Shown in pieces: positions 3,326-55,906 of a DNA stretch of 64,000 bases (its first letter is position 1; each line of letters opens with the position of its first letter). Position numbers and translations under genes: made by a program. Origin of the DNA: a virus (taxonomy: Duplodnaviria; Heunggongvirae; Uroviricota; Caudoviricetes). Location: IMG/VR virus record IMGVR_UViG_3300028549_001428, one strand, 5' to 3'. The notes under the pieces are model-generated. The model saw only the letters and a list, made by a program, of their open reading frames with translations, searched no databases and was not told the DNA's origin.

Positions 3326-4156
3326 TCATTGTTTGTTATATAATTCTTTGTTAAACATACCACAAGAGGAACCCACATCACGACCAGGTGGGTTATAGAA
3401 TTCAACTGTGTTTGATGGGAATAATGTTCTGATATATTCTTCAGATAACTTTGTATTTGTATATCCATTGGTTTCACTTAGCGTAAGGAATTTAACTGTA
3501 CTTCCATCAGCTTTTATCTTGGATTCAAATACTTTTAATTCTTTTACACTGTCATTCACACCATTTACTAATGTGTAATGATATTCGATTGGATTTCCAG
3601 TTGATGTATGGAATTCTTGTAATAATTTAATTGATGTGCGTATACCTATTCCACTCGGCACTATTTTATCACGATTGGATATACCATGTACCGACAAGTG
3701 AACTTTGATGTTAAAGTTCATGTGGTTTAATGTCCACTTAGTTAGATATTCCATTGCATTCATATTTGGCATCATAGTGGAGATACCGAATCGTATACGA
3801 TCATACTTAGCCTGTAGGAGTTCCATAGAGGCTGTTAATTCATTCAGATTAAGCAGAGGTTCACCCACACCCATAAAGCTGATAAGCAATGCTTTATCGG
3901 CTTTGTATTCAATTTGTGCAAGGTAATCAACTACTGATACTATCCAATCTGCTGATAGATTTTTGGATGGTCTATTAGTTCCTGTAAGGTGACAGAATGT
4001 GCATCCCATTTTACAATTTGTTTGAGTAGGTAGGCAAAAAATAAGTTTTGTATCTTTGCGAATGATTGATACTTCATTCTTACCAAATGTTTCATCACTA
4101 ACTATGTATTTGGTTACATCATCTATAGTTGAATCTATTTTTTCAGTTATCCACAT
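3326..4156 (-). CDS. radical SAM enzyme
   Basis: CKMGCTFC (CxxxCxxC) near residue 48, followed by a GVGEPLL glycine-rich SAM motif. Confidence 0.75.
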   Translation of the reverse strand: MWITEKIDSTIDDVTKYIVSDETFGKNEVSIIRKDTKLIFCLPTQTNCKMGCTFCHLTGTNRPSKNLSADWIVSVVDYLAQIEYKADKALLISFMGVGEPLLNLNELTASMELLQAKYDRIRFGISTMMPNMNAMEYLTKWTLNHMNFNIKVHLSVHGISNRDKIVPSGIGIRTSIKLLQEFHTSTGNPIEYHYTLVNGVNDSVKELKVFESKIKADGSTVKFLTLSETNGYTNTKLSEEYIRTLFPSNTVEFYNPPGRDVGSSCGMFNKELYNKQ

Positions 4157-4159
4157 AAA

Positions 4160-4546
4160 TTATTCCTTATTCTTTACAACGAAATATCTAAGACGATTTA
4201 CATATGTAAAATGAACAGTATCACCAATATTATGACCATACACCCAAGCATCATTCAAATTTACATTATGACATCCACCACTACAATCTATATAACTACC
4301 GTCAGAATCAGTTAAGTGATTCCCACATGCTGTAAATGTGAAATGCATATTATTTGCTGTATTTTTGAACAATGCAGTATTACACAACGCAGGTGATGTT
4401 GTTTTTCCTGATTGAATCATAGCATCTTCATTTTGATTAATTTTAACGATGACTGCGGTTACATTGACATCAGTAGATGTACCAATGGTTGTATTTCCAC
4501 ATGCCATGAACATTAATGATAGTATTGTAATTATTAAGTATTTCAT
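4160..4546 (-). CDS. lipoprotein (paralog of 41864..42280 C-terminal module)
   Basis: Lipobox LMFMACG; the C-terminal NDAWVYGHNIGDTVHF module is shared with 41864..42280. Confidence 0.6.
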   Translation of the reverse strand: MKYLIITILSLMFMACGNTTIGTSTDVNVTAVIVKINQNEDAMIQSGKTTSPALCNTALFKNTANNMHFTFTACGNHLTDSDGSYIDCSGGCHNVNLNDAWVYGHNIGDTVHFTYVNRLRYFVVKNKE

Positions 4547-4718: not shown

Positions 4719-5102
4719 TTAATTTGTTTCATCTTTTTCATCTGCGATTAATCCATGTTTGCGCAGCTCAGTTCCCCACTCGCTAACCCATCTCTCAATC
4801 TGTCTAAAATCACAGATATGAAATCTGATCCAGTTTTCAGGCAAGGCGTGAGGAAATTCACCATCACTATGAATTACCCATTCAAGGCATCCATTTGGTT
4901 GTGAATTGTTACCTTCAAAATGCATGTGAGTATAATACCCACCTATTTGAAATCCACGATTCATAGCATAGCTAGGACATGTAGTACAGTCTTGCAATCC
5001 TTCATTAGCAATACCTAACTTACAAGGATAATACCATCTAGTATTTTCGGCTGATACACCTTCACCGTGATTTAAACAATCAAAACATTTATTATTTTTC
5101 AT
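4719..5102 (-). CDS. hypothetical Cys-rich protein
   Basis: ORF; no promoter of its own. It begins 1-2 nt after the right-end hairpin of the IsrB element. Confidence 0.5.
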   Translation of the reverse strand: MKNNKCFDCLNHGEGVSAENTRWYYPCKLGIANEGLQDCTTCPSYAMNRGFQIGGYYTHMHFEGNNSQPNGCLEWVIHSDGEFPHALPENWIRFHICDFRQIERWVSEWGTELRKHGLIADEKDETN

Positions 5103-5128
5103 ATGAACCCCATGAAACCCCTGAATCT

Positions 5129-6148
5129 TCAGTTCAGGGGAGACAAAATAATATAATTGTTGTAGGATTTAAAGGTTATGTCGGAATGCGAAGCGTTCTG
5201 ACATAACCTTTTTCCTGTTTTTAAGTTATGTAGACTTATTCTATTATTGGAAGTTCCACCAATCGTACACGTTCCATATTTAGGATGTGCTACAATTGAT
5301 CCTCTTCTGAAACCTATGGATCTCGTTGACCCATAGGGTCTACGGATTCCACCCTTTGCAGGTTGAAATGCATGTAACTGTCTACGATGAAACTGCATTG
5401 GTTTAATCAATAACATAGACCTGTCAATACTTGGTAAAGATTTCATCTGCGATGACGCAAGCACCCATGAATCGACACAATGCGCATCCCATGTATTAGA
5501 AAGTTTGTTAGAATTCTTTGAAAAGTCATGTTGCTTACGCAACGTTGCTGTTTCAAACCCCTGTAACAAAATTACGTTTAACCCAAGTGATTCTAATTGT
5601 GAATAGAACCATTTTTTCCCCACTTCGAGTGGAGAAAATGAAACATTCCATTTCTTTTTATCAGGCTTCGTTACAGCTTTTATATCTTCTATCACAGCAG
5701 TTGAAATAGGAAATATTTGTTTCATTGACATAATCAGATTTAGTTTTGCTTGCCATCTAGCTTTAGTGCTCGGTGGCAACCATTCTTTATCAGAACAATT
5801 CAAATACTTGTTTTTCCTACATGGCGTATTACGTTGCCTTCTCGATCTACGAGCATTTCTGCGTGATTCTAATGCGTCCTTAACCCAAGTGACAGCATCC
5901 AACTGTATATTCAATACAGTTTTCTTTTCTGTTGTTATTGATAAGCCTTCTTTCTTTGATCCGGGGTCTACCCCGATAGTTATTGGTTGAATCTTATTGT
6001 CGGAAGGTGCTCTGTTCAACCTGATACAGAACACACCTTTATGGATGAAAGGAGTCGCTTGTCTGGATGCAATGAGCCGTCTTGCCCTTGTGGGACAAGT
6101 CGGCATCAATACCATTCCATTATATATAACTCCTACTGACATCATCAT
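5129..6148 (-). CDS. isrB: IsrB (HNH-less IscB-family RNA-guided RuvC nickase)
   Basis: PLMP domain VLMPTCPTRARRLIASRQATPF, RuvC-I IGVDPGSKKEG, Arg-rich bridge helix ESRRNARRSRRQR, RuvC-II AVIEDIKA, RuvC-III TWDAHCVDSWVLA. Only about 70 aa separate RuvC-II and RuvC-III, so there is no HNH. Length 339 aa. Confidence 0.8.
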   Translation of the reverse strand: MMMSVGVIYNGMVLMPTCPTRARRLIASRQATPFIHKGVFCIRLNRAPSDNKIQPITIGVDPGSKKEGLSITTEKKTVLNIQLDAVTWVKDALESRRNARRSRRQRNTPCRKNKYLNCSDKEWLPPSTKARWQAKLNLIMSMKQIFPISTAVIEDIKAVTKPDKKKWNVSFSPLEVGKKWFYSQLESLGLNVILLQGFETATLRKQHDFSKNSNKLSNTWDAHCVDSWVLASSQMKSLPSIDRSMLLIKPMQFHRRQLHAFQPAKGGIRRPYGSTRSIGFRRGSIVAHPKYGTCTIGGTSNNRISLHNLKTGKRLCQNASHSDITFKSYNNYIILSPLN

Positions 6149-6415
6149 TCCTTATAAAATTTGGTCTTACGACCACTCCCTTTCGGGGTATATATTCATC
6201 TTCGTCACTGACCGACCCATAGCCTCCAACTAGACGAGTATCAGAGGGTGTATTTCGTACTGTCACGTACATTCAGTTCAGTTTGATATACCATTGCCTC
6301 TTGCGAGACAAGGCTCTCATAGACTAGTTCAATCATTCAATATATCCCATGAACTCTCACGAAGTTGACAAACCTTCCAAATTCACAAGCCCCTTGGTCT
6401 TTAACCGAGGGGTGA
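6149..6415 (-). ncRNA. putative IsrB omega-RNA scaffold
   Basis: A ~270 nt non-coding stretch immediately 5' of isrB, markedly GC-richer than its surroundings and containing many hairpins. Its position matches where IscB/IsrB omega-RNAs are encoded, and a promoter lies just upstream. Confidence 0.55.
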
Positions 6416-6428
6416 TTGACATACTACA

Positions 6429-6438
6429 ATATAGCAAA
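6429..6438 (-). promoter_or_regulatory. extended -10 promoter TTTGCTATATT feeding the omega-RNA/isrB
   Basis: rc of atatagcaaa, abutting the left end of the IsrB element. Confidence 0.5.
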
Positions 6439-6466
6439 ACGTGTCTTAAATTGAAACATTTTTATT

Positions 6467-10964: not shown

Positions 10965-11146
10965 ATATCAAATCGTTTTTGCATCAATTGTGGTGTGGGA
11001 ATAAATTGTTTATGTAACTCTCTACTCTTATCTTGTTCACTTGCAATAGTAGCATTAACCGTATCCCAATATTCATCAGAGTGAGGTTCAGTCACCGACT
11101 TGTAATATGCGTCTACTGCTTCGTTTAATGTTGAAGGTTCTATCAT
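10961..11146 (-). CDS. hypothetical protein
   Basis: Short ORF, ATGA-coupled to the previous gene. Confidence 0.4.
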   Translation of the reverse strand: MIEPSTLNEAVDAYYKSVTEPHSDEYWDTVNATIASEQDKSRELHKQFIPTPQLMQKRFDI

Positions 11147-11147
11147 A

Positions 11148-11645
11148 CTATAAATATTTTATTGTTGCTTTCTCTTTGGATTTTTTAGTTGTCCATTCTT
11201 TTCTATTTTTTGCGCACTCGATTTTATGCTTTTCTATTTCTTTAATAGCATCATCTTCGGATGTAAAATACTCAGCACTATCGTAATAGTTAGTAAAAGT
11301 AGCACCGAATACATTTTGAGTTTCGTATGTTTGTATTTTATATTTTACTGGTTTCCATACAGGGATAAATAACGCATTCAATGTTAGATAGTCAGCTTCG
11401 TGTATATGTCTGTATTTTGGATCTTTTACTATTCTATATTTTATATTGACTAGATCACGTAACTCAAGTCCTATATCAAGCATATAGAAAGCAGCAAACA
11501 TTATTAGTATTGTTCGTGACACTAGTATCAATAAAAAGTGCATATGAGCTGGTTTGGGTATTCCCCATAAACTGAATTGGAATGATATTATGAGTGCTAT
11601 GGCAATAGCTATTCCAGTCAATATATATTTAGTCAATTTATTCAT
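11148..11645 (-). CDS. membrane protein
   Basis: Two N-terminal TM helices; leaderless behind TTTGCTATATT. Confidence 0.55.
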   Translation of the reverse strand: MNKLTKYILTGIAIAIALIISFQFSLWGIPKPAHMHFLLILVSRTILIMFAAFYMLDIGLELRDLVNIKYRIVKDPKYRHIHEADYLTLNALFIPVWKPVKYKIQTYETQNVFGATFTNYYDSAEYFTSEDDAIKEIEKHKIECAKNRKEWTTKKSKEKATIKYL

Positions 11646-11652
11646 TCCATAA

Positions 11653-11662
11653 ATATAGCAAA
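11653..11662 (-). promoter_or_regulatory. extended -10 promoter TTTGCTATATT
   Basis: 7 nt to the ATG at 11645, preceded by the terminator at 11663-11690. Confidence 0.55.
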
Positions 11663-11690
11663 AAAGACCTCATTTTGAGGTCTTTTCATT
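11663..11690 (-). terminator. rho-independent terminator
   Basis: aaagacctcattttgaggtctttt hairpin. Confidence 0.6.
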
Positions 11691-11816
11691 TATTTTTGGA
11701 TGTTCGAATTCAAACCTCAATACCGACAACGCCAATTCAGGAGTTTGTAAGTTGTTTTTATCTAAAAAATATGTAATTTCTTTTGGTAGTTGTGACATGA
11801 TATTATCTCTTGTAGA

Positions 11817-13105
11817 TATTCGTGAACTACCCCTGAACTAAAGACTCAGGGGCTTCAAATGACATCGCTGACATTCTTTCTGCACTGGTTGCTAACGCAA
11901 TCCCATGTTTTGCAGACTTGGATTTCTGGGTGTTCCTATCTGACCCAGTATTTTTATTATCAATTGTGACAAACGAGAAATCTCGTATATTGATAGCAGC
12001 ATTAACATCCCTATCGTGGCATTCACCACAATTTGGACATGTCCATGTTCTATCAGACAACTTCAAATCGTGTTTTATGTAACCACATTTAGAACAGGTT
12101 TTTGAGCTTGGTTCAAATCTACCAATAGTTAGTATGTTACTTCCATACCATTCGCTTTTGTAGCGAAATTGTTGGAACAACATTCCCCAACCTGCATCTT
12201 GTATGTGTTTAGATAACTTACGATTTTTCATCATTTCTTTAACATTCAGGTCTTCAATGCAGATAGTTTGGTTCTCACGTATCAGTCGTGTTGAGACTTT
12301 ATGAATGAAATCTTTTCTTTGATTAGCTACACGTTCGTGTAGCAACTGTAATTTTAATTTTTGTTTCTCTGCGTTCTTAGATAATACATCACCTTTATTT
12401 TTCGATTTGATTTTTCTCGAAAATGAACGCTGAATACTAGCTAGTCTACGCTGACATGTAACAAAATGTCTTGGATTCTTTATTTCTTCACCATCACTTG
12501 TAACAATGAATGACTTTATACCTACATCAATACCAATAGCAGTTTCTTTATTGATCTCTGGCTTACTTGGTAACTCCGTTCCATCTTCTACGAGAATGGT
12601 TACGAAGTAACGACCAGCATTAGAACGCTTGATATGGCAAGTACGAATTTCACCTATGAATTGACGATGAAATACAGTCTTTATCGGTTCATTGAACTTC
12701 GGTAATTCGATGATACCTATATCGAAATTAACCGTTAGGTTTTTGGGAACCTCAAATGATTGTTTGGACTTACGATTCTTGAACTTAGGGAATCCACCCG
12801 ACTTAGCGAAGAACTTATTGTATGCGGTATCTAAGTGGATAAGCACAGCCTGTAGTGATTGTGAATTTACTTCTTTCAACCACTCAGTAGATTCCTGTTT
12901 CTTCAACTTCGGTAGATCGGCTTGTATATCATATCTAGATAATGTACCACTTGTCTGTTTGTAATGTGAAATCTTACGAGAAAGAGCATAGTTGTACATC
13001 CATCGACAATGACCAAAGTGCTTTGATAAAAGCGACTTCTGTTCATCGGTTGGATATATTCTGTATTCGTATGTCTTTTTCATCTCTACTATACAATATA
13101 GATTA
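11817..13105 (-). mobile_element. IS200/IS605-family tnpB-only element (family A, copy 1)
   Basis: TnpB ORF plus a right-end hairpin cccctgagtctttagttcagggg inside the last codons, followed by the conserved GGGTAGTTCAC end. The CCCCT-hairpin left end is not recognisable in this copy. Confidence 0.6.
11827..13083 (-). CDS. tnpB: TnpB (IS605 OrfB) RNA-guided nuclease, family A
   Basis: Has the YEYRIYPT N-terminus, RuvC-I GIDVGIKSF, RuvC-II CIEDLNV, zinc finger CSKCG...CPNCG, and RuvC-III HDRDVNAAINI. Length 418 aa. Confidence 0.9.
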   Translation of the reverse strand: MKKTYEYRIYPTDEQKSLLSKHFGHCRWMYNYALSRKISHYKQTSGTLSRYDIQADLPKLKKQESTEWLKEVNSQSLQAVLIHLDTAYNKFFAKSGGFPKFKNRKSKQSFEVPKNLTVNFDIGIIELPKFNEPIKTVFHRQFIGEIRTCHIKRSNAGRYFVTILVEDGTELPSKPEINKETAIGIDVGIKSFIVTSDGEEIKNPRHFVTCQRRLASIQRSFSRKIKSKNKGDVLSKNAEKQKLKLQLLHERVANQRKDFIHKVSTRLIRENQTICIEDLNVKEMMKNRKLSKHIQDAGWGMLFQQFRYKSEWYGSNILTIGRFEPSSKTCSKCGYIKHDLKLSDRTWTCPNCGECHDRDVNAAINIRDFSFVTIDNKNTGSDRNTQKSKSAKHGIALATSAERMSAMSFEAPESLVQG

Positions 13106-13194
13106 TATTTTGATTATTATATGAGAAAAATCAAAATATTTTCATGATAGTCATTCTAATCACCTATTTCTTCACTCATAATAATTAACTCCTA

Positions 13195-13590
13195 TTAATA
13201 ATAACATTTACTGGTCTGGCATTCTGTGATGTCATATACCTTATCAAATCCATTTCGATCAGTAAGTTGTAACGATAAGTTATCTGAATAATATCCATTA
13301 TTTTCAGCATAACCAGGAACTGAAACAGGATGTCCGTTGATAGGAATCAAACGGATACCATAATCTTCTACTCGTTCAAAAAAGTTATCATTGCTCAAAT
13401 CAAACGACAACCCATCAAAATCTGCTAGGCTTAAATCAGCAAATGAAAGATAATGGTTTTCACAACATGATTGATTATGATCCGAAAATAGAACCACACC
13501 ATTATCAAATTCAATTTCGTATGATTCTACTTTAACTACTTTAACATTGTTCATATGATCCTCAAACTTATTTAAATATTTTCTGCACAT
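13195..13590 (-). CDS. hypothetical protein
   Basis: ORF in a packed block. Confidence 0.5.
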   Translation of the reverse strand: MCRKYLNKFEDHMNNVKVVKVESYEIEFDNGVVLFSDHNQSCCENHYLSFADLSLADFDGLSFDLSNDNFFERVEDYGIRLIPINGHPVSVPGYAENNGYYSDNLSLQLTDRNGFDKVYDITECQTSKCYY

Positions 13591-13805
13591 GCACTTTTAC
13601 AGGAATTGCAACAATAACATAATGCAGTATTTTCCTTTATTTCTACTTGATATGCGCATGGACTCGGTTTTCCTATTGTATTTACACCACATACTGGACA
13701 TAGTTCGTCTTTGATATGCTTCCACTTCTTTCCGTTAAGATGTGGAAGTCCTTTGTCATGGTTACAATCGTGTTCACACATATTAGTAACAAACTTCGTA
13801 ATCAA
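13572..13805 (-). CDS. Cys-rich zinc-ribbon protein
   Basis: Multiple CxxC pairs. Confidence 0.45.
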   Translation of the reverse strand: MITKFVTNMCEHDCNHDKGLPHLNGKKWKHIKDELCPVCGVNTIGKPSPCAYQVEIKENTALCYCCNSCKSACAENI

Positions 13806-14013
13806 TGTCTTGCATTCCCATTTCCCTTAGACGATCCATCAGAGGACAGAGGAAATAATTGCGTGTTTTATCATCATATCGACCATGTACAGCAAAGATT
13901 GCTTTATACATAGAATTAGCAGTATCACACAATTCATCAGATGCTACCAAAATTTCTTGAATCACTTTCCACTCTTTCGGAGTGAATTGAATATGGTAGT
14001 TTTTGATATACAT
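13783..14013 (-). CDS. hypothetical protein
   Basis: ORF with a canonical promoter upstream. Confidence 0.45.
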   Translation of the reverse strand: MYIKNYHIQFTPKEWKVIQEILVASDELCDTANSMYKAIFAVHGRYDDKTRNYFLCPLMDRLREMGMQDIDYEVCY

Positions 14014-14038
14014 GTAAACTCCTTGCTTGATTTCTAAT

Positions 14039-14067
14039 AATATAGAAACTTACAAGTGGTTTGTCAA
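14039..14067 (-). promoter_or_regulatory. sigma70-type promoter TTGACA-N17-TATATT
   Basis: rc of aatata-N17-tgtcaa; SD aaggag before the ATG at 14013. Confidence 0.6.
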
Positions 14068-14083
14068 TGGGTATTTTCTAATA

Positions 14084-14317
14084 CTACTCGCTAAACCAAT
14101 GCTTACAATCCCACTTGTCTTTAGGTGGGACATAACCAACCAATTGGTTTGATTCCATGCATCGAAGAGAACTAGATACCGCAACTTGTGATACCTTTGC
14201 TATTACTGCTATCACTCTAGCATCCATCACATGATACTTTGTATAATTATGCAATATATGTAAAATTTTTAATTGAAATGCATTCATATTATCAATATTT
14301 TTGTATACGCTTAACAA
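14084..14317 (-). CDS. putative winged-helix DNA-binding protein
   Basis: Helix-turn-wing pattern ...ARVIAVIAKVSQVAVSSSLRCMESNQLVGYV; weak support. Confidence 0.35.
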   Translation of the reverse strand: MLSVYKNIDNMNAFQLKILHILHNYTKYHVMDARVIAVIAKVSQVAVSSSLRCMESNQLVGYVPPKDKWDCKHWFSE

Positions 14318-14369
14318 AACCGTAATATCTATCGGAAATTACAGGAACAAGATCGCCTGTAATTTCTGT

Positions 14370-14660
14370 TCATTTGTTACTAACAACATTGCACGTTAAT
14401 AGTTTTTTGAATACTATTGTTCTATTATCAACCTTAACTTCACTTACAGTTCCACCATATACACAACTTGGATTATCATCATATTTATCAACAGCTACTA
14501 TGGTGTCGCCTACTTGAATATCATCAAAATCTATATGAATAAAATCATATTTAGTTGATGGAAAATTTTCAATCAACTTATCAAATAATATGTTAATTCC
14601 TAATGTATAAAGGAAGTGTTTCAATACTACGTTAATAAATGTCATGATGTTTCCACCCAC
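14370..14660 (-). CDS. hypothetical protein
   Basis: ORF in a packed block. Confidence 0.45.
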   Translation of the reverse strand: MGGNIMTFINVVLKHFLYTLGINILFDKLIENFPSTKYDFIHIDFDDIQVGDTIVAVDKYDDNPSCVYGGTVSEVKVDNRTIVFKKLLTCNVVSNK

Positions 14661-15051
14661 CTAACCCTTTGATTCTGCTTTTTACAATTCGATCAGCAAA
14701 TCGTCTATGTGGAGCATCTTCATCCTCAACACATTCAAGGGTGTATACTTTGTCTGTCTTTAGTGGCTTTCCGTTGAATATTGGTGGCTTATCTAAGTCT
14801 AATGTTCCATCAACTTTTAAAAAGTCTGCATGAATTTCATCATTTTCCCACCATTTATTTTCTTCATACCACCTGTGAGTTCTACCATCAGGATACACAA
14901 ATTCAATACCCCATATTGCTTCGATATCTTCAATTGCAAAGAACCGATCCCCAATAGGATCTTCACCTACATCATACTCACCAATAGATTTTAAATATGA
15001 AACATACTTTTCGTATGGAAAGCTAATATAATAAGTATAGGTGTTTTTCAT
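14632..15051 (-). CDS. hypothetical protein
   Basis: ORF in a packed block. Confidence 0.5.
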   Translation of the reverse strand: MKNTYTYYISFPYEKYVSYLKSIGEYDVGEDPIGDRFFAIEDIEAIWGIEFVYPDGRTHRWYEENKWWENDEIHADFLKVDGTLDLDKPPIFNGKPLKTDKVYTLECVEDEDAPHRRFADRIVKSRIKGLGGWKHHDIY

Positions 15052-15067
15052 TAAATGACTCCGTTAT

Positions 15068-16472
15068 GTGTATCAATTACCTTTTTAACTGATTTCGTGA
15101 GAGAAATCCCCTAAATCTTTAGTTTAGGGGATGAATCGAACAATACAAATATACAAAAATCTAAGAAAAAATAAAAATATTTCTTAGATTATATAAACTA
15201 ATACTATGAAACGGACTTATGAGTATAGGATATATCCACGTTCTGACCAGAAAGTGCTTCTATCGAAGCATTTTGGTAGTGTTCGTTGGATGTATAATTA
15301 TGCATTGGGACGTAAGATAGAACATTACAAACAGACAAGTAAGACACTTTCTAGATATGAAATACAGGCAGAAATACCAGCAATGAAGAAAACTGAATCA
15401 ACGGCTTGGTTGAAAGAAGTGAATTCCCAGTCATTACAGGCTGTTTTGTTGAACATAGAAACTGCATATACAAAGTTCTTCAGTAAATCGGGAGGATTCC
15501 CGAAATTTAAGAACAAGAAATCAAAACAGTCATTTGAAATACCTACTAATCTAGAAGTTGATTTCGATAGTGGAACTATCGAAATCCCGAAGTTCAAGGA
15601 ACCAATCAGGACTGTATTTCATCGCAAGTTTGTAGGTGAAATACGAACCTGTCATATCAAGCGTTCCGCTTCTGGTAAATATTATGTCACTATTCTAGTG
15701 GATGATGGTAAGGAATTACCAGTAAAACCAGAGATAACAAAAGAAACTGCTATTGGTATTGATGTAGGTATCAAGTCATTTATCGTCACCAGTGAAGGTG
15801 AAGAAATATCTAATCCAAGACACTTTGTTACATGCCAGCGTAGGCTGGTATCTGTTCAACGTTCATTTTCGAGAAAAATCAAATCGAAGAAGAAAGGTGA
15901 TCCTTTATCACTAAACGCTGAAAAAGTAAAATTGAAACTGCAATTGCTCCATGAGCAAGTTGCTAACCAACGTAAAGATTTCATTCATAAAGTCTCAACT
16001 CGACTGATACGTGAGAACCAAACTATCTGTATTGAAGACCTGAATGTTAAAGGAATGCTCAAGAACCGTAAGTTATCTAAACACATCCAAGATGCTGGAT
16101 GGGGAATGTTATTCCAACAACTTCGCTATAAAAGCGAATGGTATGGAACTAATATCCTAACCATAGGCAGGTTCGAGCCTAGCTCGAAAACCTGCTCTAA
16201 ATGTGGTTACATAAAACACGATCTTATATTGAAAGATAGAACCTGGACTTGTCCGATTTGTGGTGAATGCCACGATAGAGATGTCAACGCTTCTATCAAC
16301 ATTAGAGATTTCTCTTTTGTCACTATTGATAATAAAAATACTGGGTCAATTAGGAACACCCAGAAATTAAAGCCTGTAAAATATGGGACTTCGTTAGAAG
16401 CCAGTGCAGGAAAAGCATCCGTGAGGACGCTTGAAGCCCTTGAGTCTTTAGCTCAAGGGTAGTTCACTAATA
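15068..16472 (+). mobile_element. IS200/IS605-family tnpB-only element (family A, copy 2)
   Basis: Left-end block atttcgtgagagaaatcccctaaatctttagtttagggg (about 15085-15133) is shared with copy 7. The right-end hairpin cccttgagtctttagctcaaggg lies inside the last codons, followed by GGGTAGTTCAC. Confidence 0.7.
15206..16462 (+). CDS. tnpB: TnpB (IS605 OrfB) RNA-guided nuclease, family A
   Basis: About 75% aa identity to 11827..13083, with the same motifs; in inverted orientation relative to copy 1. Confidence 0.9.
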   Translation: MKRTYEYRIYPRSDQKVLLSKHFGSVRWMYNYALGRKIEHYKQTSKTLSRYEIQAEIPAMKKTESTAWLKEVNSQSLQAVLLNIETAYTKFFSKSGGFPKFKNKKSKQSFEIPTNLEVDFDSGTIEIPKFKEPIRTVFHRKFVGEIRTCHIKRSASGKYYVTILVDDGKELPVKPEITKETAIGIDVGIKSFIVTSEGEEISNPRHFVTCQRRLVSVQRSFSRKIKSKKKGDPLSLNAEKVKLKLQLLHEQVANQRKDFIHKVSTRLIRENQTICIEDLNVKGMLKNRKLSKHIQDAGWGMLFQQLRYKSEWYGTNILTIGRFEPSSKTCSKCGYIKHDLILKDRTWTCPICGECHDRDVNASINIRDFSFVTIDNKNTGSIRNTQKLKPVKYGTSLEASAGKASVRTLEALESLAQG

Positions 16473-16735
16473 GACTCATTATACACAAATCCATCGGGAT
16501 GCTCGATGTGAAAGTCTCGTGCTTCTTTTGGTGTGCTAAATCTAACATCTTCCCAATACCATTGATCGTAGCCAGTTGTACACGAATCATGCTTAAATAC
16601 CAAGTACGCATTCCAACAGTAGTCAGAATGTATAAGTTTTTTAAGAAACCCTTTGATTCCTTTTTGTGGTGGAAGTCTAAAATATGGTGTAAAGCAACTC
16701 CCATTCATATCAACTTTATATTCTATATTTGACAT
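16448..16735 (-). CDS. hypothetical protein
   Basis: ORF overlapping the TnpB right end; weak. Confidence 0.3.
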   Translation of the reverse strand: MSNIEYKVDMNGSCFTPYFRLPPQKGIKGFLKKLIHSDYCWNAYLVFKHDSCTTGYDQWYWEDVRFSTPKEARDFHIEHPDGFVYNESISELPLS

Positions 16736-17685
16736 TACTTAATTCCAAAATATACATTCAATTTATTTCTTACATCATGTGAGTTACATGAGTCTATCAG
16801 TTTCTTAGTCAATTCCGTTTTTGATCGTTGTTCGATATTTATTCTATACATTACTGCTGGAATAAGAGCAAAATAACCATCTCTAAATAGAACATTATCA
16901 ATTCGGTAACTGCCTGTGACATCTTGTTCAGGTGGATTTAGCGAATACATTGATTCATGTGTATGCCCATCATGTATAGTAATCAAATAATAATGATCTG
17001 GAAATTGATTAATAATTTTCTCAAATTCAGTCTTTATTTTATTGTATTGATACTCAATGTAAGCAGCTTTCATTGGTCTAATTTGGCTTAATTTATCAGC
17101 CAAAACATTCTCATCATACTTAGCTAGTGATATTTCAATGCTTCGATTTGGTGCATTCGTATCTTGTGAAAAATCAAATTTGGTTGACTTAAATGTACTT
17201 CCATCACAAAAATTATTAACCTTATAAAACCATTCACTATATGTAGTAGATACATAATCACATACAGGTATATGTACTAGTGATTTACTGTATTGAATAT
17301 CAAACCTAGCTTTACCTGTCAGGTATTTTAAGTTTTTGCATATATTTATATAGTATTGAGCAGTTTCCCTACTTAAATCAATCGATTGTGAGTTATTACT
17401 GCTATAATCATAAATAGGTCCAACATATGTCAATGATCCCACTTTGAAACTATTCCCATTAATGGTAGAATAATTAGTTGGGATGGAAGATATATTAATG
17501 CGCACTGTGCTATCATTTAATGAATTTAGTTCATTAATAAATGATTCAAATTCTTCTTTTGTATAATTGCGCACAGGCGTTCTAAAATATACAGTATCAA
17601 CTGGTTTAACTTCTGTGTTAGATAAATTAACAGTTGGTTTAATTGATGGATGATTGTCTATAATCTGTTGTAACCATTTAAACAT
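16735..17685 (-). CDS. hypothetical protein (possible metallophosphoesterase-like HDGHTHE)
   Basis: 316-aa ORF. The ITIHDGHTHES motif is suggestive only. Confidence 0.45.
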   Translation of the reverse strand: MFKWLQQIIDNHPSIKPTVNLSNTEVKPVDTVYFRTPVRNYTKEEFESFINELNSLNDSTVRINISSIPTNYSTINGNSFKVGSLTYVGPIYDYSSNNSQSIDLSRETAQYYINICKNLKYLTGKARFDIQYSKSLVHIPVCDYVSTTYSEWFYKVNNFCDGSTFKSTKFDFSQDTNAPNRSIEISLAKYDENVLADKLSQIRPMKAAYIEYQYNKIKTEFEKIINQFPDHYYLITIHDGHTHESMYSLNPPEQDVTGSYRIDNVLFRDGYFALIPAVMYRINIEQRSKTELTKKLIDSCNSHDVRNKLNVYFGIK

Positions 17686-21638: not shown

Positions 21639-21672
21639 TATCCATTTCTGCCTTATAAAAATACTACAATAA

Positions 21673-21682
21673 ATATAGCAAA
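21673..21682 (-). promoter_or_regulatory. extended -10 promoter TTTGCTATATT abutting the tnpB stop codon
   Basis: rc of atatagcaaa, starting 1 nt after the TnpB stop (21683-21685). Confidence 0.5.
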
Positions 21683-22969
21683 TTATAGTTGAAATGCCAA
21701 AGACAATTCAACTTTATTTCTCAGCGAGGCTACAAGAGCCTCGCTGTTCCATCGACCATCAGATGATCTAAGGAACGCTTCATCGACCGAAGTTATGTCA
21801 GAAATTGCTTTCTGACACAGAGCTACAATCTTCACGGACGTAAATTTCCCAGAGGCACTGGGTATTAATTCAAATAAGCCATAGGCTAATATGTTGATTG
21901 ATGCGTTGTGATCTCTATCAATTACACATCCACATTCTTCACATATATACTCTCTTTCATCAAGTCCAATGTGGTGCTTTAACGCACCACATTGAGAACA
22001 TAATTTGGATGAAGGAAAGAACCTATCAGCTTTAAGAACTATAGAACCTGATCGTTTGGATTTATAATCGGTCATTCTGACCAATTCACTCCACGAAGAA
22101 TCAGATATTGAACGAGCCAGCTTGTGGTTTTTAAGCATTCCTCGTATATTCAAATCTTCGAATACAATGATTGCATTTTCATTCACGATTTTTCGTGAAT
22201 ATTTATGTAAATGATCTTTTCGAATATTCGATATTCTAGCATGTTGTTTTGCTAGTTTCATTTTTGTTTTATTTCGTCTGATGCTTCCTTTGGAAGCACG
22301 AGATAATTTCTTTTGTAAGCGTACCAGCTTTTGTTGGTGCTTCTTCAATGGTCTAGGTGACTGCTCCTCATGACCATTACTCTCTACGGCAAATGTCTTT
22401 AATCCTAAATCAATACCTATAATCCCTGATTCGCTTTGGGTTATACCCAACGCATCAGGAATTTCATAATTAACAGAAACATAATATTTACCAGCAGTTC
22501 TAGAAATAGTATATGATAAAATCCTAACATGTTTCTTCTTGAATCTCAAGCCTTCGACTAACTTCACTCGTCCAACCAATGGAAGTTTTATATGATTGTT
22601 AGTGACATGAGCCTTATCATTACTCACATAAAATGAATCCCTACATTTACCTTTCTTCTTCTTTCTTGGAAACTTAAAGTGCGTATTTCCTGTCTTTTTC
22701 CCATTGAAATAATTTTTGAGAGCAATGGATAGATTAGCAAACGGTTGTTGATTTGCGTCCTTTGGACAATCATAAACCCATTTTGGCTTGCATTTATTCC
22801 ATTCTTTCTTCAAATCATTCATTGTCACTTTGGCTACGTCAAGTGACTTCTGTTCTTTCCATTTATTTAATGCCCAATTATAGGCATATCGAGATACACC
22901 AAAAGACTTGTTAAAAACCAACACCTGTTCAGGTGATGGATATAACAATATCTTTTGTCCCATTATCAT
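21683..22969 (-). CDS. tnpB: TnpB RNA-guided nuclease, family B
   Basis: RuvC-I GIDLGLKTF, RuvC-II VFEDLNI, zinc finger CSQCG...CEECG, RuvC-III DRDHNASINI. The GC-rich 3' region contains a cgaggctcttgtagcctcg hairpin. Length 428 aa. Confidence 0.9.
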   Translation of the reverse strand: MIMGQKILLYPSPEQVLVFNKSFGVSRYAYNWALNKWKEQKSLDVAKVTMNDLKKEWNKCKPKWVYDCPKDANQQPFANLSIALKNYFNGKKTGNTHFKFPRKKKKGKCRDSFYVSNDKAHVTNNHIKLPLVGRVKLVEGLRFKKKHVRILSYTISRTAGKYYVSVNYEIPDALGITQSESGIIGIDLGLKTFAVESNGHEEQSPRPLKKHQQKLVRLQKKLSRASKGSIRRNKTKMKLAKQHARISNIRKDHLHKYSRKIVNENAIIVFEDLNIRGMLKNHKLARSISDSSWSELVRMTDYKSKRSGSIVLKADRFFPSSKLCSQCGALKHHIGLDEREYICEECGCVIDRDHNASINILAYGLFELIPSASGKFTSVKIVALCQKAISDITSVDEAFLRSSDGRWNSEALVASLRNKVELSLAFQL

Positions 22970-22999
22970 CGTTATTTCAATACCACTTTAATAATGACA

Positions 23000-45027: not shown

Positions 45028-46149
45028 ATGATAATGATGAAGACATATAAATACAAGTTGTACAATCGAGATGCTTTGAAGCATCTTGATCGTATAGTTG
45101 ATTTGTCTTCATGGATATATAATCACTGTATAGCTTTACATCGTAGATATTATAGATTGTTCAAGAAACATTTAAATAAGTATCAGTTGCAGAAGCACCT
45201 GACGAAGCTGAAGCGAACTGAAAGGTTCGTTTCATGGAAGGAAGTACCCAGCCAAGCAATACAGGATATAACAGATAGAATAGATCGTTCCTATTTGATG
45301 TTCTATAAGAACATCAAATTGAAGAAGAAAAGCTCACCGCCTCACTTCCAGAAGAAAGTGAATTATCTGAGTTTCACTACGAAACAGGCAGGATTCAAGT
45401 TATTGGAAGGAGACAAGATCCGCATAGCGGATCATGTCTTCCCATACTGGAACTCACGTCCTGTCAATGGAACTATAAAGACTCTAACCGTTAAAAGAAC
45501 TACTCGTGGATATTATATTTATCTAGTGGTAGAGGAAGAAGCAAACATATCGAAGCCAGTTACATCAGGTAAAAGCGTGGGCTTTGATTTTGGTATGAAG
45601 AAATTCCTTGTTGCCTCAGATGGAAATGATGTCACTATGCCATTGTTCCTCAAGAAGTCACTGAAAAAGTTGCGCCTTTTGACGCAAAAGTTTAGTAAAT
45701 CTAGAGGAAAGTTTGGCTCACGTAAGTCACTGTCCAAACTACATGAAAAGGTTTCAAATCAACGAAATGATATGCATTGGAAGTTAGCCCATAGGCTGAC
45801 TTCCACCTATGATTTTATTATATTTGAAACTCTTGATCTTCTTGGTATGTATAAAGCTTGTCAGAAGAAAATCATGGACTTCGGATTCGCCTCATTCTTA
45901 TCCATTCTCGAATATGTTGCGAAACAAAAAGGAAAAATAGTCCACTACGTGGATAAATATTTCCCTTCTTCACAACTATGTTTCGATTGTGGATACCAAA
46001 ATGCAGAAATTAAAGATACTAAAATTCGTGAATGGATATGTCCTCAATGTGGTTCTGTTCATGATAGAGATCAGAACGCTGCTAATAACATTGAAAGAGA
46101 AGGGACTTCTTCTCTAAATACTTGCGCCACTGGCGTAATATGTATTTGA
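45028..46149 (+). CDS. tnpB: TnpB RNA-guided nuclease, family C
   Basis: YKYKLYN N-terminus, RuvC-I VGFDFGMKKF, RuvC-II IIFETLDL, zinc finger CFDCG...CPQCG, RuvC-III HDRDQNAANNI. Length 373 aa. Confidence 0.85.
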   Translation: MIMMKTYKYKLYNRDALKHLDRIVDLSSWIYNHCIALHRRYYRLFKKHLNKYQLQKHLTKLKRTERFVSWKEVPSQAIQDITDRIDRSYLMFYKNIKLKKKSSPPHFQKKVNYLSFTTKQAGFKLLEGDKIRIADHVFPYWNSRPVNGTIKTLTVKRTTRGYYIYLVVEEEANISKPVTSGKSVGFDFGMKKFLVASDGNDVTMPLFLKKSLKKLRLLTQKFSKSRGKFGSRKSLSKLHEKVSNQRNDMHWKLAHRLTSTYDFIIFETLDLLGMYKACQKKIMDFGFASFLSILEYVAKQKGKIVHYVDKYFPSSQLCFDCGYQNAEIKDTKIREWICPQCGSVHDRDQNAANNIEREGTSSLNTCATGVICI

Positions 46150-47321: not shown

Positions 47322-47480
47322 ATGCCAAAAACAAAGATAGACACAATCGGAATTTATATACGAATGTCAGAAGTATTAGTAGAGAAAATGGATTCGGTAG
47401 CATTGGAACGAGGATTCAGTCGTTCTGAATATATCCGTTACTTGATCCAGAATGCAATAGAAAAGGAAGAGAGTAAGTAA
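47322..47480 (+). CDS. ribbon-helix-helix (CopG/Arc-like) DNA-binding protein immediately upstream of tnpB
   Basis: 52 aa. The beta-strand IGIYIRMSEVL and helices ...SRSEYIRYLIQNAIEKE are typical of the RHH fold. SD aggataat; the stop is 2 nt before the tnpB ATG. Confidence 0.55.
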   Translation: MPKTKIDTIGIYIRMSEVLVEKMDSVALERGFSRSEYIRYLIQNAIEKEESK

Positions 47481-47482
47481 TT

Positions 47483-48769
47483 ATGTTAATGGGTCAGAAG
47501 ATATTGTTGTATCTATCGCCTGAACAGGCGTTGGTTTTTAACAAGTCTTTTGGCGTATCCCGATATGCCTATAACTGGGCATTAAGTAAATGGAAAGAAC
47601 ATAAATCACTTGGCGTAGCCAAAGTGACAATGAATGATTTGAAGAAAGAATGGAATAAATGTAAGCCAGAATGGGTTTATGATTGTCCAAAGGACGCTAA
47701 TCAACAACCATTTGCTGATTTATCCACTGCATTAAAGAATTATTTTACATCAAAGAAAGCGGGGAATAAGCATTTTAAGTTTCCAAGAAAGAAGAAACGA
47801 GGAAAATGTAAAGATTCTTTCTATGTGAGTAACGATAAGGCTCATATAACTAACAATCATATTAAATTGCCTTTAATTGGTAAAGTGAAGTTAGCCGAAG
47901 GCTTGAGATTCAAGAAGAAACATGTTAGGATTTTATCATATACTATTTCTAGAACTGCTGGTAAATATTATGTTTCTGTTAATTATGAAATTCCTGATGC
48001 GTTGGGTGTAACCCAAAGCGGATCAGGAATAGTAGGAATAGATTTAGGATTAAAGACATTTGCCGTAGAGAGTAATGGACATGAGGAGCAATCACCTAGA
48101 CCATTGAAGAAGCACCAACAAAAGCTGGTACGCTTACAAAAGAAATTATCTCGTGCTTCCAAGGGAAGCATCAGACGAACTAAAACGAAAATGAAACTAG
48201 CAAAACAACATGCTAGGATTTCAAATATTCGAAAAGATCATTTGCATAAATATTCACGAAAGATCGTGAACGAAAATGCAATTATTGTTTTCGAAGATTT
48301 GAATATACGAGGAATGCTTAAAAACCACAAGCTGGCTCGTTCAATATCTGATTCTTCTTGGAGTGAATTGGTCAGAATGACCGATTACAAATCCAAACGA
48401 TCAGGTTCTATAGTCTTAAAAGCTGATAGGTTCTTTCCTTCATCTAAATTATGTTCACAATGTGGTGCGTTAAAGCACCACATTGGACTTGATGAAAGAG
48501 AGTATATATGTGAACAATGCGGATGTGTGATTGATCGAGATCACAATGCATCAATCAACATTCTAGCCTATGGCTTATTTCAATTAATACCCAGTGCCTC
48601 TGGGAAATTTACGTCCGTGAAGATTGTAGCTCTGTGTCAGAAAGCAATTTCTGACATAACTTCGGTCGATGAAGCGTTCCTTAGATCATCTGATGGTCGA
48701 TGGAACAGCGAGGCTCTTGTAGCCTCGTTGAGAAATCAAGTTGTTTTGTCATTGACAGAACTTCCATAA
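47483..48769 (+). CDS. tnpB: TnpB RNA-guided nuclease, family B
   Basis: About 93% aa identity to 21683..22969, in inverted orientation; all RuvC and zinc-finger motifs are intact. Confidence 0.9.
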   Translation: MLMGQKILLYLSPEQALVFNKSFGVSRYAYNWALSKWKEHKSLGVAKVTMNDLKKEWNKCKPEWVYDCPKDANQQPFADLSTALKNYFTSKKAGNKHFKFPRKKKRGKCKDSFYVSNDKAHITNNHIKLPLIGKVKLAEGLRFKKKHVRILSYTISRTAGKYYVSVNYEIPDALGVTQSGSGIVGIDLGLKTFAVESNGHEEQSPRPLKKHQQKLVRLQKKLSRASKGSIRRTKTKMKLAKQHARISNIRKDHLHKYSRKIVNENAIIVFEDLNIRGMLKNHKLARSISDSSWSELVRMTDYKSKRSGSIVLKADRFFPSSKLCSQCGALKHHIGLDEREYICEQCGCVIDRDHNASINILAYGLFQLIPSASGKFTSVKIVALCQKAISDITSVDEAFLRSSDGRWNSEALVASLRNQVVLSLTELP

Positions 48770-48809
48770 AATACTATATTAGTGTGATGAACACTTTTAT
48801 TCATATTTT

Positions 48810-51321: not shown

Positions 51322-51501
51322 GATGGAACGTATGAAAGTAGTTAGAGTAACAAAAGAAGAATATGAGTTGGATGACGGAACAATCATCACTCACGTAAGC
51401 AAGTTGGACGAAGTTCCAACCATTGAAGAATTCCAAGCCTATCTAGATGAATGGTACGACAAGATCGTTCCTCGCTACGAGGAACGCAATGAAGGATAAG
51501 T
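51322..51501 (+). CDS. small hypothetical protein overlapping the IS607 left end
   Basis: 59-aa ORF (MERMKVVRVTKEEYELDD...); below the track threshold. Confidence 0.3.
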
Positions 51502-52151
51502 TAATATCTATAACCGAAGCCTGTAAAATCCTCGATGTAAGCAAGGATACCATGAGACGTTGGGATAAAAATGAAACATTCAAACCAACGAAAACCGAAG
51601 GTAAGCATCGTAAGTATCTTCTGTCCGAAGTGTACAAGAAAGCTGGTATCGTTACTGATGTAGATGGTACTCCAATCAGCGTAGTAAGCGATACAGATGT
51701 TGCTGTGTATTGCAGAGTGTCATCACATGACCAGAAGCAGAAAGGCGACCTAGAGCGTCAGAAAGCCCGTGTAATGCAACACTGCGTTGATAAGGGATAT
51801 AAGATCATTGAAACATTTGATGAAACTGGGTCTGGTATGAATGATAACAGACCGAAGTTACATAAAATGATTCAACTCGCTATCAGCGGTAAAGTGAAGA
51901 AAATCATAGTTGAACACTCTGATCGTCTTACCAGATTCAATTATAAGTTGATTGAACTATTGTTCACCAGTCATGGTGTCAAGGTTGAATGCATAGAAGA
52001 AGTTCTTGGTAAAACATTCGAGGATGAACTGGTCAAGGACATGCTTACATTGATGGCATCATTCAGTGCCAAGATTTATGGTAAGCGCAGTCACCAGAAC
52101 AGAAAGAAGAAAGATGCGGAAGTTACACCAGAGGTCGTAGCAACCACATGA
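51489..52151 (+). CDS. tnpA: IS607-type serine recombinase with N-terminal MerR-like HTH
   Basis: HTH LISITEACKILDVSKDTMRRWDK; catalytic region VAVYCRVSSHDQKQKGDLERQ...DETGSG...DRLTRF. The likely start is MKDKL; the track ORF begins further upstream. Confidence 0.85.
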   Translation: MKDKLISITEACKILDVSKDTMRRWDKNETFKPTKTEGKHRKYLLSEVYKKAGIVTDVDGTPISVVSDTDVAVYCRVSSHDQKQKGDLERQKARVMQHCVDKGYKIIETFDETGSGMNDNRPKLHKMIQLAISGKVKKIIVEHSDRLTRFNYKLIELLFTSHGVKVECIEEVLGKTFEDELVKDMLTLMASFSAKIYGKRSHQNRKKKDAEVTPEVVATT

Positions 52152-55747: not shown

Positions 55748-55880
55748 GTGAACTACCCATGGGTTAAATGCTCATAGGATTCTGACTTCATAGACAGTTG
55801 CGCATTGCTACGGCTAACACCATCTCCATCAGTGTACTCGCCAGTTCCTGACGAGAGAAGGCTTACACCTTCTGTTAATA
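55748..55880 (-). mobile_element. orphan family-A tnpB 3'-end / omega-RNA right-end remnant
   Basis: GC-rich 130 nt whose end, catgggtagttcac, and preceding sequence align with the last ~120 nt of tnpB 11827..13083 and 15206..16462 (gaagcccttgagtctttagctcaagggtagttcac). There is no ORF upstream. Confidence 0.55.
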
Positions 55881-55906
55881 TATTTTTACTATACATATTT
55901 AACACA

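Follow-up and report, generated by a model that had tools for sequence, protein, structure and literature searches.

The 64,000-nt stretch of the virus record IMGVR_UViG_3300028549_001428 (Caudoviricetes), called the window in the following, carries tnpB genes and an isrB gene next to which copies of an imperfect palindrome of about 23 nt, CCCCT…AGGGG, are found. The question raised by this locus is whether these hairpins are the sites at which a transposase recognizes the ends of insertion sequence (IS) elements, and whether the elements can still be moved. An earlier note on the same DNA had taken them for the subterminal hairpins of IS200/IS605 elements, and this is supported by autonomous relatives that carry the same left end, a gene for a Y1 HUH transposase (TnpA), and the same right end. 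Very probably, they are left-end and right-end subterminal hairpins that belong to a widespread branch of the IS200/IS605 family resembling IS608 and ISDra2, and they delimit four elements, with no working TnpA encoded in the window.

Hairpins at the ends of four elements

The tnpB copies are numbered 1-7 in window order, and those with hairpins are copy 1 (11827-13083, minus strand, 418 aa), copy 2 (15206-16462, plus strand, 418 aa), and copy 7 (62073-63374, plus strand, 433 aa). They are joined by isrB (5129-6148, minus strand), which encodes a RuvC/RRXRR nuclease of 339 aa with no HNH domain. The strict pattern CCCCT-N13-AGGGG matches four times in the window where 0.22 matches are expected, and none of 100 shuffles reaches four. 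A scan with a relaxed stem finds exactly seven hairpins in the whole 64 kb, every one of which lies at an element end, namely at the left and right ends of the IsrB element (5118-5140 and 6390-6412, both plus strand), at the right end of copy 1 (11830-11852, minus strand), and at the left and right ends of copy 2 (15108-15130 and 16437-16459, plus strand) and of copy 7 (61975-61996 and 63350-63371, plus strand). The seven palindromes listed in the earlier note are therefore recovered, each within 14 nt of the position given there. Its statement that they mark both ends of three tnpB elements and of the isrB element holds insofar as all of them lie at element ends, but copy 1 possesses a right-end hairpin only. 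Copy 2, copy 7, and the IsrB element have two hairpins each, with the loop TCTT(T/C)(A/G)(A/G), on one strand.

The grouping of these TnpBs as a single protein family ("family A") is not tenable: the proteins of copies 1 and 2 are 81% identical, and copy 7, which represents a separate TnpB clade, is only about 27% identical to either. The TnpB genes combine the Pfam domains OrfB_IS605 and Cas12f1-like_TNB, and the RuvC D-E-D triad and the zinc finger are kept in 7/7 TnpBs of the window, including copies 1, 2, and 7 (GxDxG, xExL, DRDxNA/HSDLNA; CxxC…CxxC). TnpB of copy 2, for which a look-up of the exact protein returned nothing on record, aligns over residues 3-380 with ISDra2 TnpB (PDB 8EXA; E=1e-74).

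As single-stranded DNA, the five regular hairpins fold with -7.4 to -9.0 kcal/mol (z -3.1 to -4.8), and the two of copy 7, with a bulge or an indel, with -5.5 (left) and -6.7 kcal/mol (right). If G·T wobbles are counted, the strand with the TCTTTAG loop is better paired than the complementary one at six sites out of seven. This strand is the coding strand for tnpB but the antisense strand for isrB. No T-run follows the hairpins of the window. Blocks of sequence that the earlier note described as common to several ends are real as well. For the left-end block ATTTCGTGAGAG(A/G)AATCCCC, the only occurrences are those at 15092 and 61959 (0.01 expected), the left-end regions of copies 2 and 7 being 87% identical over 53 nt, and GGGTAGTTCAC is found exactly at the right ends of copy 1 (11822, minus strand) and copy 2 (16457, plus strand) and at an orphan right end (55748, minus strand).

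For the hairpin searches beyond the window, the loop TCTTTAG was fixed and the three middle stem positions were left free. The hairpin pattern identified 59 viral loci, and the right-end pattern at least 120 loci in reference genomes, with Methanosarcina, Desulfobacter, Thiotrichaceae, Marithrix, Planctomycetota, and Phocaeicola among the matches listed. The three free positions are fully complementary in nearly all of the occurrences listed; counted over distinct hairpin sequences, they are paired in 21 of 40 (4.5 expected). In a set of 45 distinct hairpins, 92.5% of cells are paired and double-sided changes number 50, against 15±4 in shuffles. The covariation score amounts to 0.308 (vs 0.099), a value that 0 of 500 shuffles reach, and it collapses in slid registers. 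In the right-end stem of copy 2, a unique pair, C4-G20, has changed from C-G to T-A in a compensated manner. Judging from these alignments, covariation of the stem is strong in copies from viruses, bacteria, and archaea. A very widespread IS605 branch in phages, bacteria, and archaea is marked by the hairpin CCCCT-NNN-TCTTTAG-NNN-AGGGG, which provides a practical search handle for TnpB/IscB ends.

Autonomous relatives, boundaries, and targets

Copies 1 and 2 have their closest relative on the IMG/VR contig L001, a complete element of the IS605 type in which TTAAT|GG is followed by a left end, a 138-aa gene on the opposite strand, tnpB, and a right-end hairpin and then TAGTTCAC. Its left end is 93% identical to that of copy 2, and its tnpB shares 89% identity with copy 1. 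The product of the 138-aa gene is identified as a Y1 transposase by Pfam (Y1_Tnp, E=3.5e-35) and NCBIfam (transpos_IS200, 129 bits vs a cut-off of 55), and it has the HUH motif DHIHMM and a tyrosine in KYIESQ that is aligned to ISDra2 TnpA (2XM3; E=1e-19); the match to IS608 TnpA (2A6M) has a value of 1.6e-14. More autonomous copies, with a Y1 TnpA between the same ends, exist in L022, L210, L218 (two copies), L076, and others, and L022 additionally holds the left end and a cut-off tnpA of a second element. Autonomous relatives in viral metagenomes show the arrangement TTAAC|GG-left end-tnpA(Y1)-tnpB-right end, and their TnpBs are 84-89% identical to copy 1.

The 64-kb window contains no intact gene for a Y1 TnpA, as had been stated before, and only a stump of tnpA adjoins copy 1 (13110-13188, plus strand). 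It comprises the first 19-26 codons or so of a Y1 tnpA with an in-frame stop, and was detected in a tblastn search that used TnpA of L001 as the query (19 aa aligned with 74% identity, E=1.7e-4). Homology to L001 in blastn spans 11822-13170 and then ends; the extension of the stump from 13170 to 13188 was read by eye. Taken together, the end of homology at 13170 and the stump indicate that copy 1 is an autonomous element that has lost its left end and most of its tnpA, so that what appears to be left of it extends from 11822 to about 13188. A similar internal deletion of tnpA is present in L199. The right end of copy 1 (11822-11852, minus strand) consists of the hairpin CCCCTGAG-TCTTTAG-TTCAGGGG (11830-11852) and the octamer TAGTTCAC (11822-11829), and the TAG in this right end is the stop codon of tnpB.

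Copy 2 (element 15090-16467) is a clean tnpA-less derivative with both ends. Directly 5' of its left end stands TTTAAC (15084-15089, plus strand), its target and predicted transposon-associated motif (TAM). The left end (15090-15143, plus strand) reads TG-ATTTCGTGAGAGAAAT, followed by the hairpin CCCCTAAA-TCTTTAG-TTTAGGGG (15108-15130, -8.7 kcal/mol) and ATGAATCGAACAA, and the right end (16437-16467, plus strand) is formed by the hairpin CCCTTGAG-TCTTTAG-CTCAAGGG (16437-16459, -9.0 kcal/mol) and the octamer TAGTTCAC (16460-16467). Both hairpins are perfect and the octamer is canonical; the first base of the left end is T, not G. When the flanks are joined, the TAA stop of the neighboring minus-strand gene is restored inside the target motif.

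Copy 7 (element 61957-63379) is damaged at both ends. Its target and left end (61951-62005, plus strand) consist of CTCAAC (61951-61956), GG-ATTTCGTGAGAGGAAT, and the hairpin at 61975-61996, in which one base of the 3' arm is missing; intact relatives (L200, L202, L214, and L215) have CCCCTGAATCTTTAGTTCAGGGG and TTCAAC. The right end (63350-63379, plus strand) has a hairpin with an indel, CCCC-GAATCTTTGATTCAGGGG, and the octamer TAGTTGGC, where relatives have TAGTTGAC. Compared with the intact L215 and L202, whose TnpBs are 87-88% identical to that of copy 7, TTGGC replaces TTGAC and CAAAT replaces CAAG. The orphan right end, together with a guide-RNA remnant (55748-55906, minus strand), belongs to a third type of TnpB element; with GGGTAGTTCAC at its end, it corresponds to the right ends of L025 and L199, and the hairpin is decayed (-1.3 kcal/mol, z +0.4).

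Alignment of 23 distinct left-end flanks from viral or metagenome loci and the window reveals that only T-T-(T/C)-A-A-C, and then GG-ATTTCG, is conserved, the sequence further upstream being random. The target of the TnpB type is accordingly TT(T/C)AAC, with the hairpin beginning 18 nt inside the element. On the right side, homology among independent copies stops 8 nt after the hairpin, and the terminal octamers are TAGTTCAC for the copy 1/2 type and TAGTTGAC or TGATTGAC for the copy 7 and IsrB types. The right-end flanks are unrelated and the target motif is not repeated, so that no target-site duplication is seen.

The bases 5' of the left hairpin vary together with the target: GAAAT goes with TTTAAC in 18/18 cases and GGAAT with (T/C)TCAAC in 5/5. 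Considering triplets at the left end, AAA accompanies TTT in 18/18 cases and GAA accompanies TTC in 4/5, the exception being copy 7 of the window with CTC; at the right end, CAA accompanies TTG in 27/27 and GAA accompanies TTC in 22/29. Such covariation is consistent with the pairing rule of IS608 and, with few independent clades and some exceptions, suggestive only. The exact base-by-base register of IS608 could not be reproduced for this pairing from published descriptions.

Some other loci deserve mention. In L202, a second and distant Y1 TnpA (3794-4198; 40% identical to L001 TnpA) is encoded directly outside a left end of the copy 7 type and may represent a nested insertion or the cognate transposase of this type. 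Relatives of tnpB copy 4 (70% identical) in L020, L021, L206, and L216 are situated a few hundred nt from a left end of the copy 2 type, with no tnpA behind it, and may be further cargo on the same ends. At about 1146-1192 of L209 (Ga0255345_1043228), a mini-element of 47 nt, preceded by TTTAAT-TGG, is made up of the left-end 5' block, a single hairpin, and the tail TAGTTCAC. It looks like a recombination product of left-end and right-end hairpins or a minimal palindrome-associated transposable element (PATE).

Predicted guide RNAs, the IsrB element, and the TnpB C-terminus

Beyond what the earlier note had noticed, the right-end hairpin seems to double as a stem of the guide RNA, and isrB runs antisense to the hairpin strand, an arrangement already described in the literature. 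For right ends of the copy 1/2 type, the last 125 nt or so can be folded into four stems with 39 pairs, nine of them with compensatory changes (RNAalifold, eight homologues). This region would be the expected omega-RNA scaffold of TnpB, ending at the right-end boundary. In copy 2, the predicted scaffold occupies 16341-16467 (plus strand) and the right-end hairpin is its last stem, and in copy 1 it is again the last 125 nt or so of tnpB that are predicted to serve as scaffold. Rfam searches returned nothing for the right end of copy 2 at E≤10, and nothing for the whole window at gathering score. As homology among independent copies ends at TAGTTCAC, the guide of copy 2 is predicted to be TAATAGACTCATTATACACA (16468-16487, plus strand). 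Secondary targets of the predicted guides within the window are limited to weak matches with three mismatches and no TAM.

The IsrB protein matches only RRXRR in Pfam (5.9e-35), and its best match in the PDB is IsrB (8DMB, 9e-30); IscB structures match only its N-terminal 110 residues or so, and NCBIfam guided_IscB likewise matches the N-terminal part only. Homologues are encoded in L066 (74% identical) and L058 (69%). In the window, L066, and L058, the element starts with GTCAA on the isrB strand and ends about 15 nt after the left hairpin, after which ATGA(A/T) follows. These common boundaries define the IsrB element as 5103-6420, inserted 3' of TTCAT (5098-5102, plus strand). On the isrB strand, the target reads ATGAA, the predicted 3' TAM, and it holds the start codon of the flanking open reading frame (ORF) 4719-5102. 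The left-end hairpin (5118-5140, plus strand), CCCCTGAA-TCTTCAG-TTCAGGGG with -8.1 kcal/mol, overlaps the isrB stop codon on the opposite strand, and its context TTCATATG..CCATGAAA is common to L064, L077, and L066. The right end (6390-6420, plus strand) is composed of the hairpin 6390-6412 and the terminal octamer TGATTGAC (6413-6420). Both hairpins are good, although each loop differs by one base from TCTTTAG. The hairpin at 6390 has nine pairs on the plus strand and five on the minus strand, and a T·G wobble on the DNA plus strand equals an A·C mismatch in RNA, a small hint that the DNA form is under selection there. If the flanks of the element are joined, TTTGCTATATT-GTAGTAT-ATG results, by which the spacing usual for this motif in the phage, 6-7 nt before ATG, is restored, and this restored spacing serves as an internal check on the boundaries of the element.

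The predicted guide-RNA scaffold of IsrB, an omega RNA resembling HEARO, covers 6190-6420 (minus strand) and starts with GUCAAUCACCCC at the right-end boundary. Rfam HEARO (RF02033) aligns there over its full length (model 1-211; 28 bits, E=0.0017; gathering score 83), and the 5' end of the HEARO consensus, GUCAAcuaCCCC..UaAA..GGGG, is the reverse complement of hairpin and octamer. In L066 and L058, the region upstream of isrB is conserved and covarying, with stems visible by eye; the addition of distant HEARO-type loci degraded this alignment, so that only the three close sequences were informative. From the HEARO start and the divergence of flanks among homologues, the IsrB guide is predicted to be GTTTTGCTATATTGTAGTAT (6421-6440, minus strand), directly outside the right end and overlapping the promoter-like motif TTTGCTATATT. 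The right-end hairpin would thus be the last stem of the TnpB scaffold and, as its reverse complement, the first stem of the IsrB (HEARO) guide RNA. The loop TCTT(C/T)A(G/A) lies on the plus strand and isrB on the minus strand, whereas tnpB is sense to the loop strand. In both types the guide would be taken from the DNA that directly flanks the right end, which would explain why isrB is antisense to tnpB relative to the shared ends.

As a separate observation, the predicted IsrB guide contains one copy of TTTGCTATATT, at a distance of 7 nt from the boundary of the right end, and transcription from this copy might give an omega RNA without a guide. In the window, this motif has 25 occurrences with at most one mismatch (4.8 expected), 14 of them exact copies on the minus strand (e.g., 1270, 6428, 7783, 11652, 21672, 30888, and 60112). 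It often stands 6-7 nt before ATG, or directly after a terminator-like hairpin. Probably it is a phage promoter, possibly one that serves leaderless mRNAs.

The right-end hairpin was also said to dictate a conserved protein C-terminus, and this is borne out. In this phage lineage, the tnpB frame runs through the hairpin to the TAG of the octamer, the hairpin thereby encoding the last seven residues PESLxQG; the C-termini observed are APESLVQG*, ALESLAQG*, and IPESLIQG*. With an identity of only about 27%, copy 7 still has the same heptapeptide at its end as copies 1 and 2, which argues that this tail is imposed by the DNA. Elsewhere, the same DNA mostly lacks a long frame: in 142 right-end contexts, the hairpin frame reads xP(E/R/L/V)SLA(Q/E)G wherever it is free of internal stops, and in most of them it is open for less than 60 codons. 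A long tnpB ORF through the hairpin to the octamer TAG exists only in the three elements of the window and their close viral relatives L001, L022, L025, and L033.

Proposed mobilization, genomic setting, and known systems

With ends, targets, and relatives in hand, a mechanism can be proposed. A dimer of Y1 HUH TnpA would bind both hairpins on the strand with the TCTTTAG loop, as is established for IS608 and assumed here by homology. It would cut on the left directly 3' of TT(T/C)AAC, 18 nt before the hairpin, or in the IsrB type 3' of TTCAT, 15 nt before it, and on the right 8 nt after the hairpin, behind TAGTTCAC or TGATTGAC. The cleavage motifs would be recognized through base pairs with the (A/G/C)AA triplet that directly precedes each hairpin on its 5' side. 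Copy 2 and the IsrB element, which look mobilizable, could then be moved in trans by a TnpA encoded elsewhere in the phage, in a co-infecting phage, or in the host. Copies 1 and 7 would be fossils with regard to transposition, with element ends that look dead and with intact nuclease motifs. The alternative raised earlier, mobilization in trans or fossilization, fits in both its parts, as the ends of copy 2 and of the IsrB element are intact, copy 1 is without a left end, and the hairpins and the cleavage motif of copy 7 are damaged.

Several points weigh against this view. A TnpA acting in trans is presumed, the analysis covering 64 kb of the phage. Excision and transposition by TnpA are deduced by analogy, and the exact cleavage positions would follow from the divergence of flanks and from the analogy with IS608. 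The covariation between guide and cleavage motifs has exceptions and comes from few clades. The elements of the window yielded no empty site, nor any pair of empty and occupied alleles; a search of metagenomes with the reconstructed empty site of copy 2 gave no match, and relatives of the flanking 316-aa protein were searched in IMG/VR and none was found, which precluded a comparison of empty sites. The IsrB loops, TCTTCAG and TCTTTAA, are each one base away from TCTTTAG, the fixed loop of the patterns by which relatives were collected, and the pattern specific for left ends had no match in 185,579 reference bacterial and archaeal genomes. Finally, the HEARO score of 28 bits is far below the Rfam gathering score of 83.

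A different reading of the same origin would be that the ends are vestigial and that the elements now spread without TnpA, through RNA-guided cutting of TAM-adjacent empty sites in co-infecting relatives and recombinational copying, resembling in this the homing endonucleases of T4-like phages. It differs only with regard to the present-day mechanism, and we consider it unlikely, though a serious candidate. Homing by TnpB and IscB has been documented (Meers et al., 2023, bioRxiv 10.1101/2023.03.14.532601), and it would explain why triad and zinc finger persist in all seven TnpBs, even in copies 1 and 7 with their dead ends, why the guide-RNA scaffold is kept with compensatory changes, and why no Y1 TnpA is found in 64 kb of what resembles a large T4-like phage that also encodes an HNH endonuclease. 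However, the ends of copy 2 and of the IsrB element are well formed, and the compensatory change from C4-G20 to T-A points to recent selection on the hairpin. Moreover, relatives are located at many unrelated sites which share only the target motif, as is expected from transposition and not from homing, and pairs of empty and occupied alleles have not turned up.

It is much less probable still that the hairpins act at the RNA level only, as guide-RNA stems, terminators, or stabilizers of mRNA, and are not sites for a transposase. The right-end hairpin is indeed part of the predicted fold of the TnpB guide RNA and of the HEARO consensus, but the left-end hairpins, with the same loop on the same strand, lie upstream of tnpB and outside any guide RNA. 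A T-run does not follow, the better-paired strand is antisense to the RNA in the IsrB element, and in autonomous relatives a Y1 TnpA is encoded between the same ends. That the hairpins are chance or generic regulatory palindromes of the phage, similar to repetitive extragenic palindromes (REPs), near these genes can hardly be entertained, for although the window does contain another abundant short motif, TTTGCTATATT, four strict hairpins (0.22 expected) and three relaxed ones all lie at element ends, and the same hairpin with its covarying stem recurs at the ends of IS605 elements in viruses, bacteria, and archaea, the loci numbering in the hundreds. An identity as terminators or REP-like sequences was ruled out by the missing T-run, by the left-end copies upstream of genes, and by the location of all copies at element ends.

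Subterminal hairpins of the IS200/IS605 family remain the reading we prefer. As a bolder speculation, which we regard as rather doubtful, IS605 elements in this lineage of large phages might by now be TnpA-independent cassettes for RNA-guided homing. Three unrelated nucleases (two TnpB clades and IsrB) would have settled on one set of ends, and nuclease genes and scaffolds would outlast transposase and ends. With tnpB extended through the right end, the same 23 nt would be transposase hairpin, guide-RNA stem, and conserved tail PESLxQG, the tail possibly with an acquired function.

Regarding the setting, the window is AT-rich (GC about 33%) and consists mostly of minus-strand ORFs of small size. 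The best interpretation is that it stems from an uncultured large phage, and it resembles large T4-like phages. Matches to PHROG include an HNH endonuclease and radical-SAM-like proteins, and for one of the proteins a counterpart with 47% identity exists in T4-like Klebsiella, Enterobacter, and Cronobacter phages. In megablast, 11000-17500 had no match among INPHARED phages, and a 44-mer taken from the window was absent from IMG/VR, so that neither collection offers a near-identical sequence. Eight genes for RNA-guided nucleases, seven tnpB and one isrB, are present in the 64 kb together with the orphan right end, occupying roughly 18% of the sequence, and catalytic motifs are intact in all eight. 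Homologues of IsrB occur in only 13 of 50,697 INPHARED phage records.

Copies 1 and 2 form an inverted repeat of 1.27 kb (about 80% identical) that flanks 1.9 kb of small ORFs (11822-16467), one of which encodes a DUF7448 protein. Other tnpB genes are copy 3 (21683-22969, minus strand), copy 4 (45028-46149, plus strand), copy 5 (47483-48769, plus strand), and copy 6 (52148-53488, plus strand). Copies 3 and 5 (21672-22977 and 47475-48780) are 91.6% identical over 1307 nt in inverted orientation; on both sides homology stops no more than 11 nt outside the ORF, and their flanks have no CCCCT hairpin and no recognizable left end. Copy 6 is part of an apparently autonomous IS607-type element (51447-53488), whose TnpA is a serine recombinase of 234 aa (Pfam Resolvase, 2.4e-25, and a MerR-type helix-turn-helix) with a stop codon that overlaps the start of tnpB. 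Consequently, the window does have a transposase, but one of a family that does not use CCCCT…AGGGG hairpins. Further short direct repeats, 88-94% identical and unrelated to IS elements, were noted at 27445-27544/28394-28493, 23444-23494/24392-24442, and 21604-21638/23459-23493.

[quoted passage not shown] The copy 1/2 type is predicted to have the TAM TTTAAC, the copy 7 type TTCAAC, and IsrB ATGAA 3' of the target, and the nucleases are compact (339-433 aa).

Among known systems, IS608 of Helicobacter pylori and ISDra2 of Deinococcus radiodurans, the latter with the target TTGAT, resemble the elements described here in the Y1 HUH TnpA of relatives, subterminal hairpins on one strand, and insertion 3' of a short motif, neither target duplication nor terminal inverted repeats being present. 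The predicted left cut about 18-19 nt 5' of the hairpin, the predicted right cut a few nt 3' of it, and the putative guide bases 5' of the hairpin foot are similar, too. In IS608, TTAC stands 19 nt 5' of the left hairpin, right cleavage takes place 10 nt 3' of the right hairpin, and guide tetranucleotides are found 5' of each hairpin foot (PMC3201880). In contrast, the targets here are TT(T/C)AAC or TTCAT, not TTAC as in IS608, and the right end is reached 8 nt after the hairpin, not 10. In addition, the loop TCTTTAG, a tnpB that runs through the right-end hairpin, the phage host, and the absence of tnpA from the copies of the window are different from IS608 and ISDra2.

ISC elements (IscB/IsrB) and IS605B elements (TnpB-only, IS1341-like) have common termini and opposite gene orientation, and mobilization in trans by Y1 TnpA has been predicted for them (Kapitonov, Makarova and Koonin, 2016; PMC4810608). 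The window repeats this pattern, with non-autonomous elements of the IscB family and of TnpB in one genome, common hairpin termini, a 5'-GTCA start on the iscB strand, and iscB and tnpB always opposite relative to the shared ends. It differs by the phage genome, by two unrelated TnpB clades instead of one that share ends with the IsrB element, and by left-end 5' blocks that are not the same for IsrB and TnpB types. In IS605-family elements of Geobacillus stearothermophilus, several TnpB and IscB families and gene-less PATE-like elements have left and right ends in common and are excised in trans by a single TnpA; TAM and transposon target are identical there, and the guide RNA extends over the right end (Meers et al., 2023, bioRxiv 10.1101/2023.03.14.532601). 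Several elements of the TnpB and IscB families on common ends are likewise present in the window, which stands apart by its phage setting, by the lack of TnpA in 64 kb, and by being known from sequence alone. The model of the HEARO RNA (RF02033) aligns over its full length at 6190-6420 (minus strand), and the 5' end of its consensus is the reverse complement of hairpin and octamer; with 28 bits against a gathering score of 83, and with large insertions and deletions in mid-model, the sequence would be a divergent member. All main features are known already from the biochemistry of IS608 and ISDra2 or from the studies of 2016 and 2023, and the current understanding of IS200/IS605 biology is unchanged. 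New are the setting in a phage, the specific target motifs, and the fact that tnpB reads through the hairpin of the right end.

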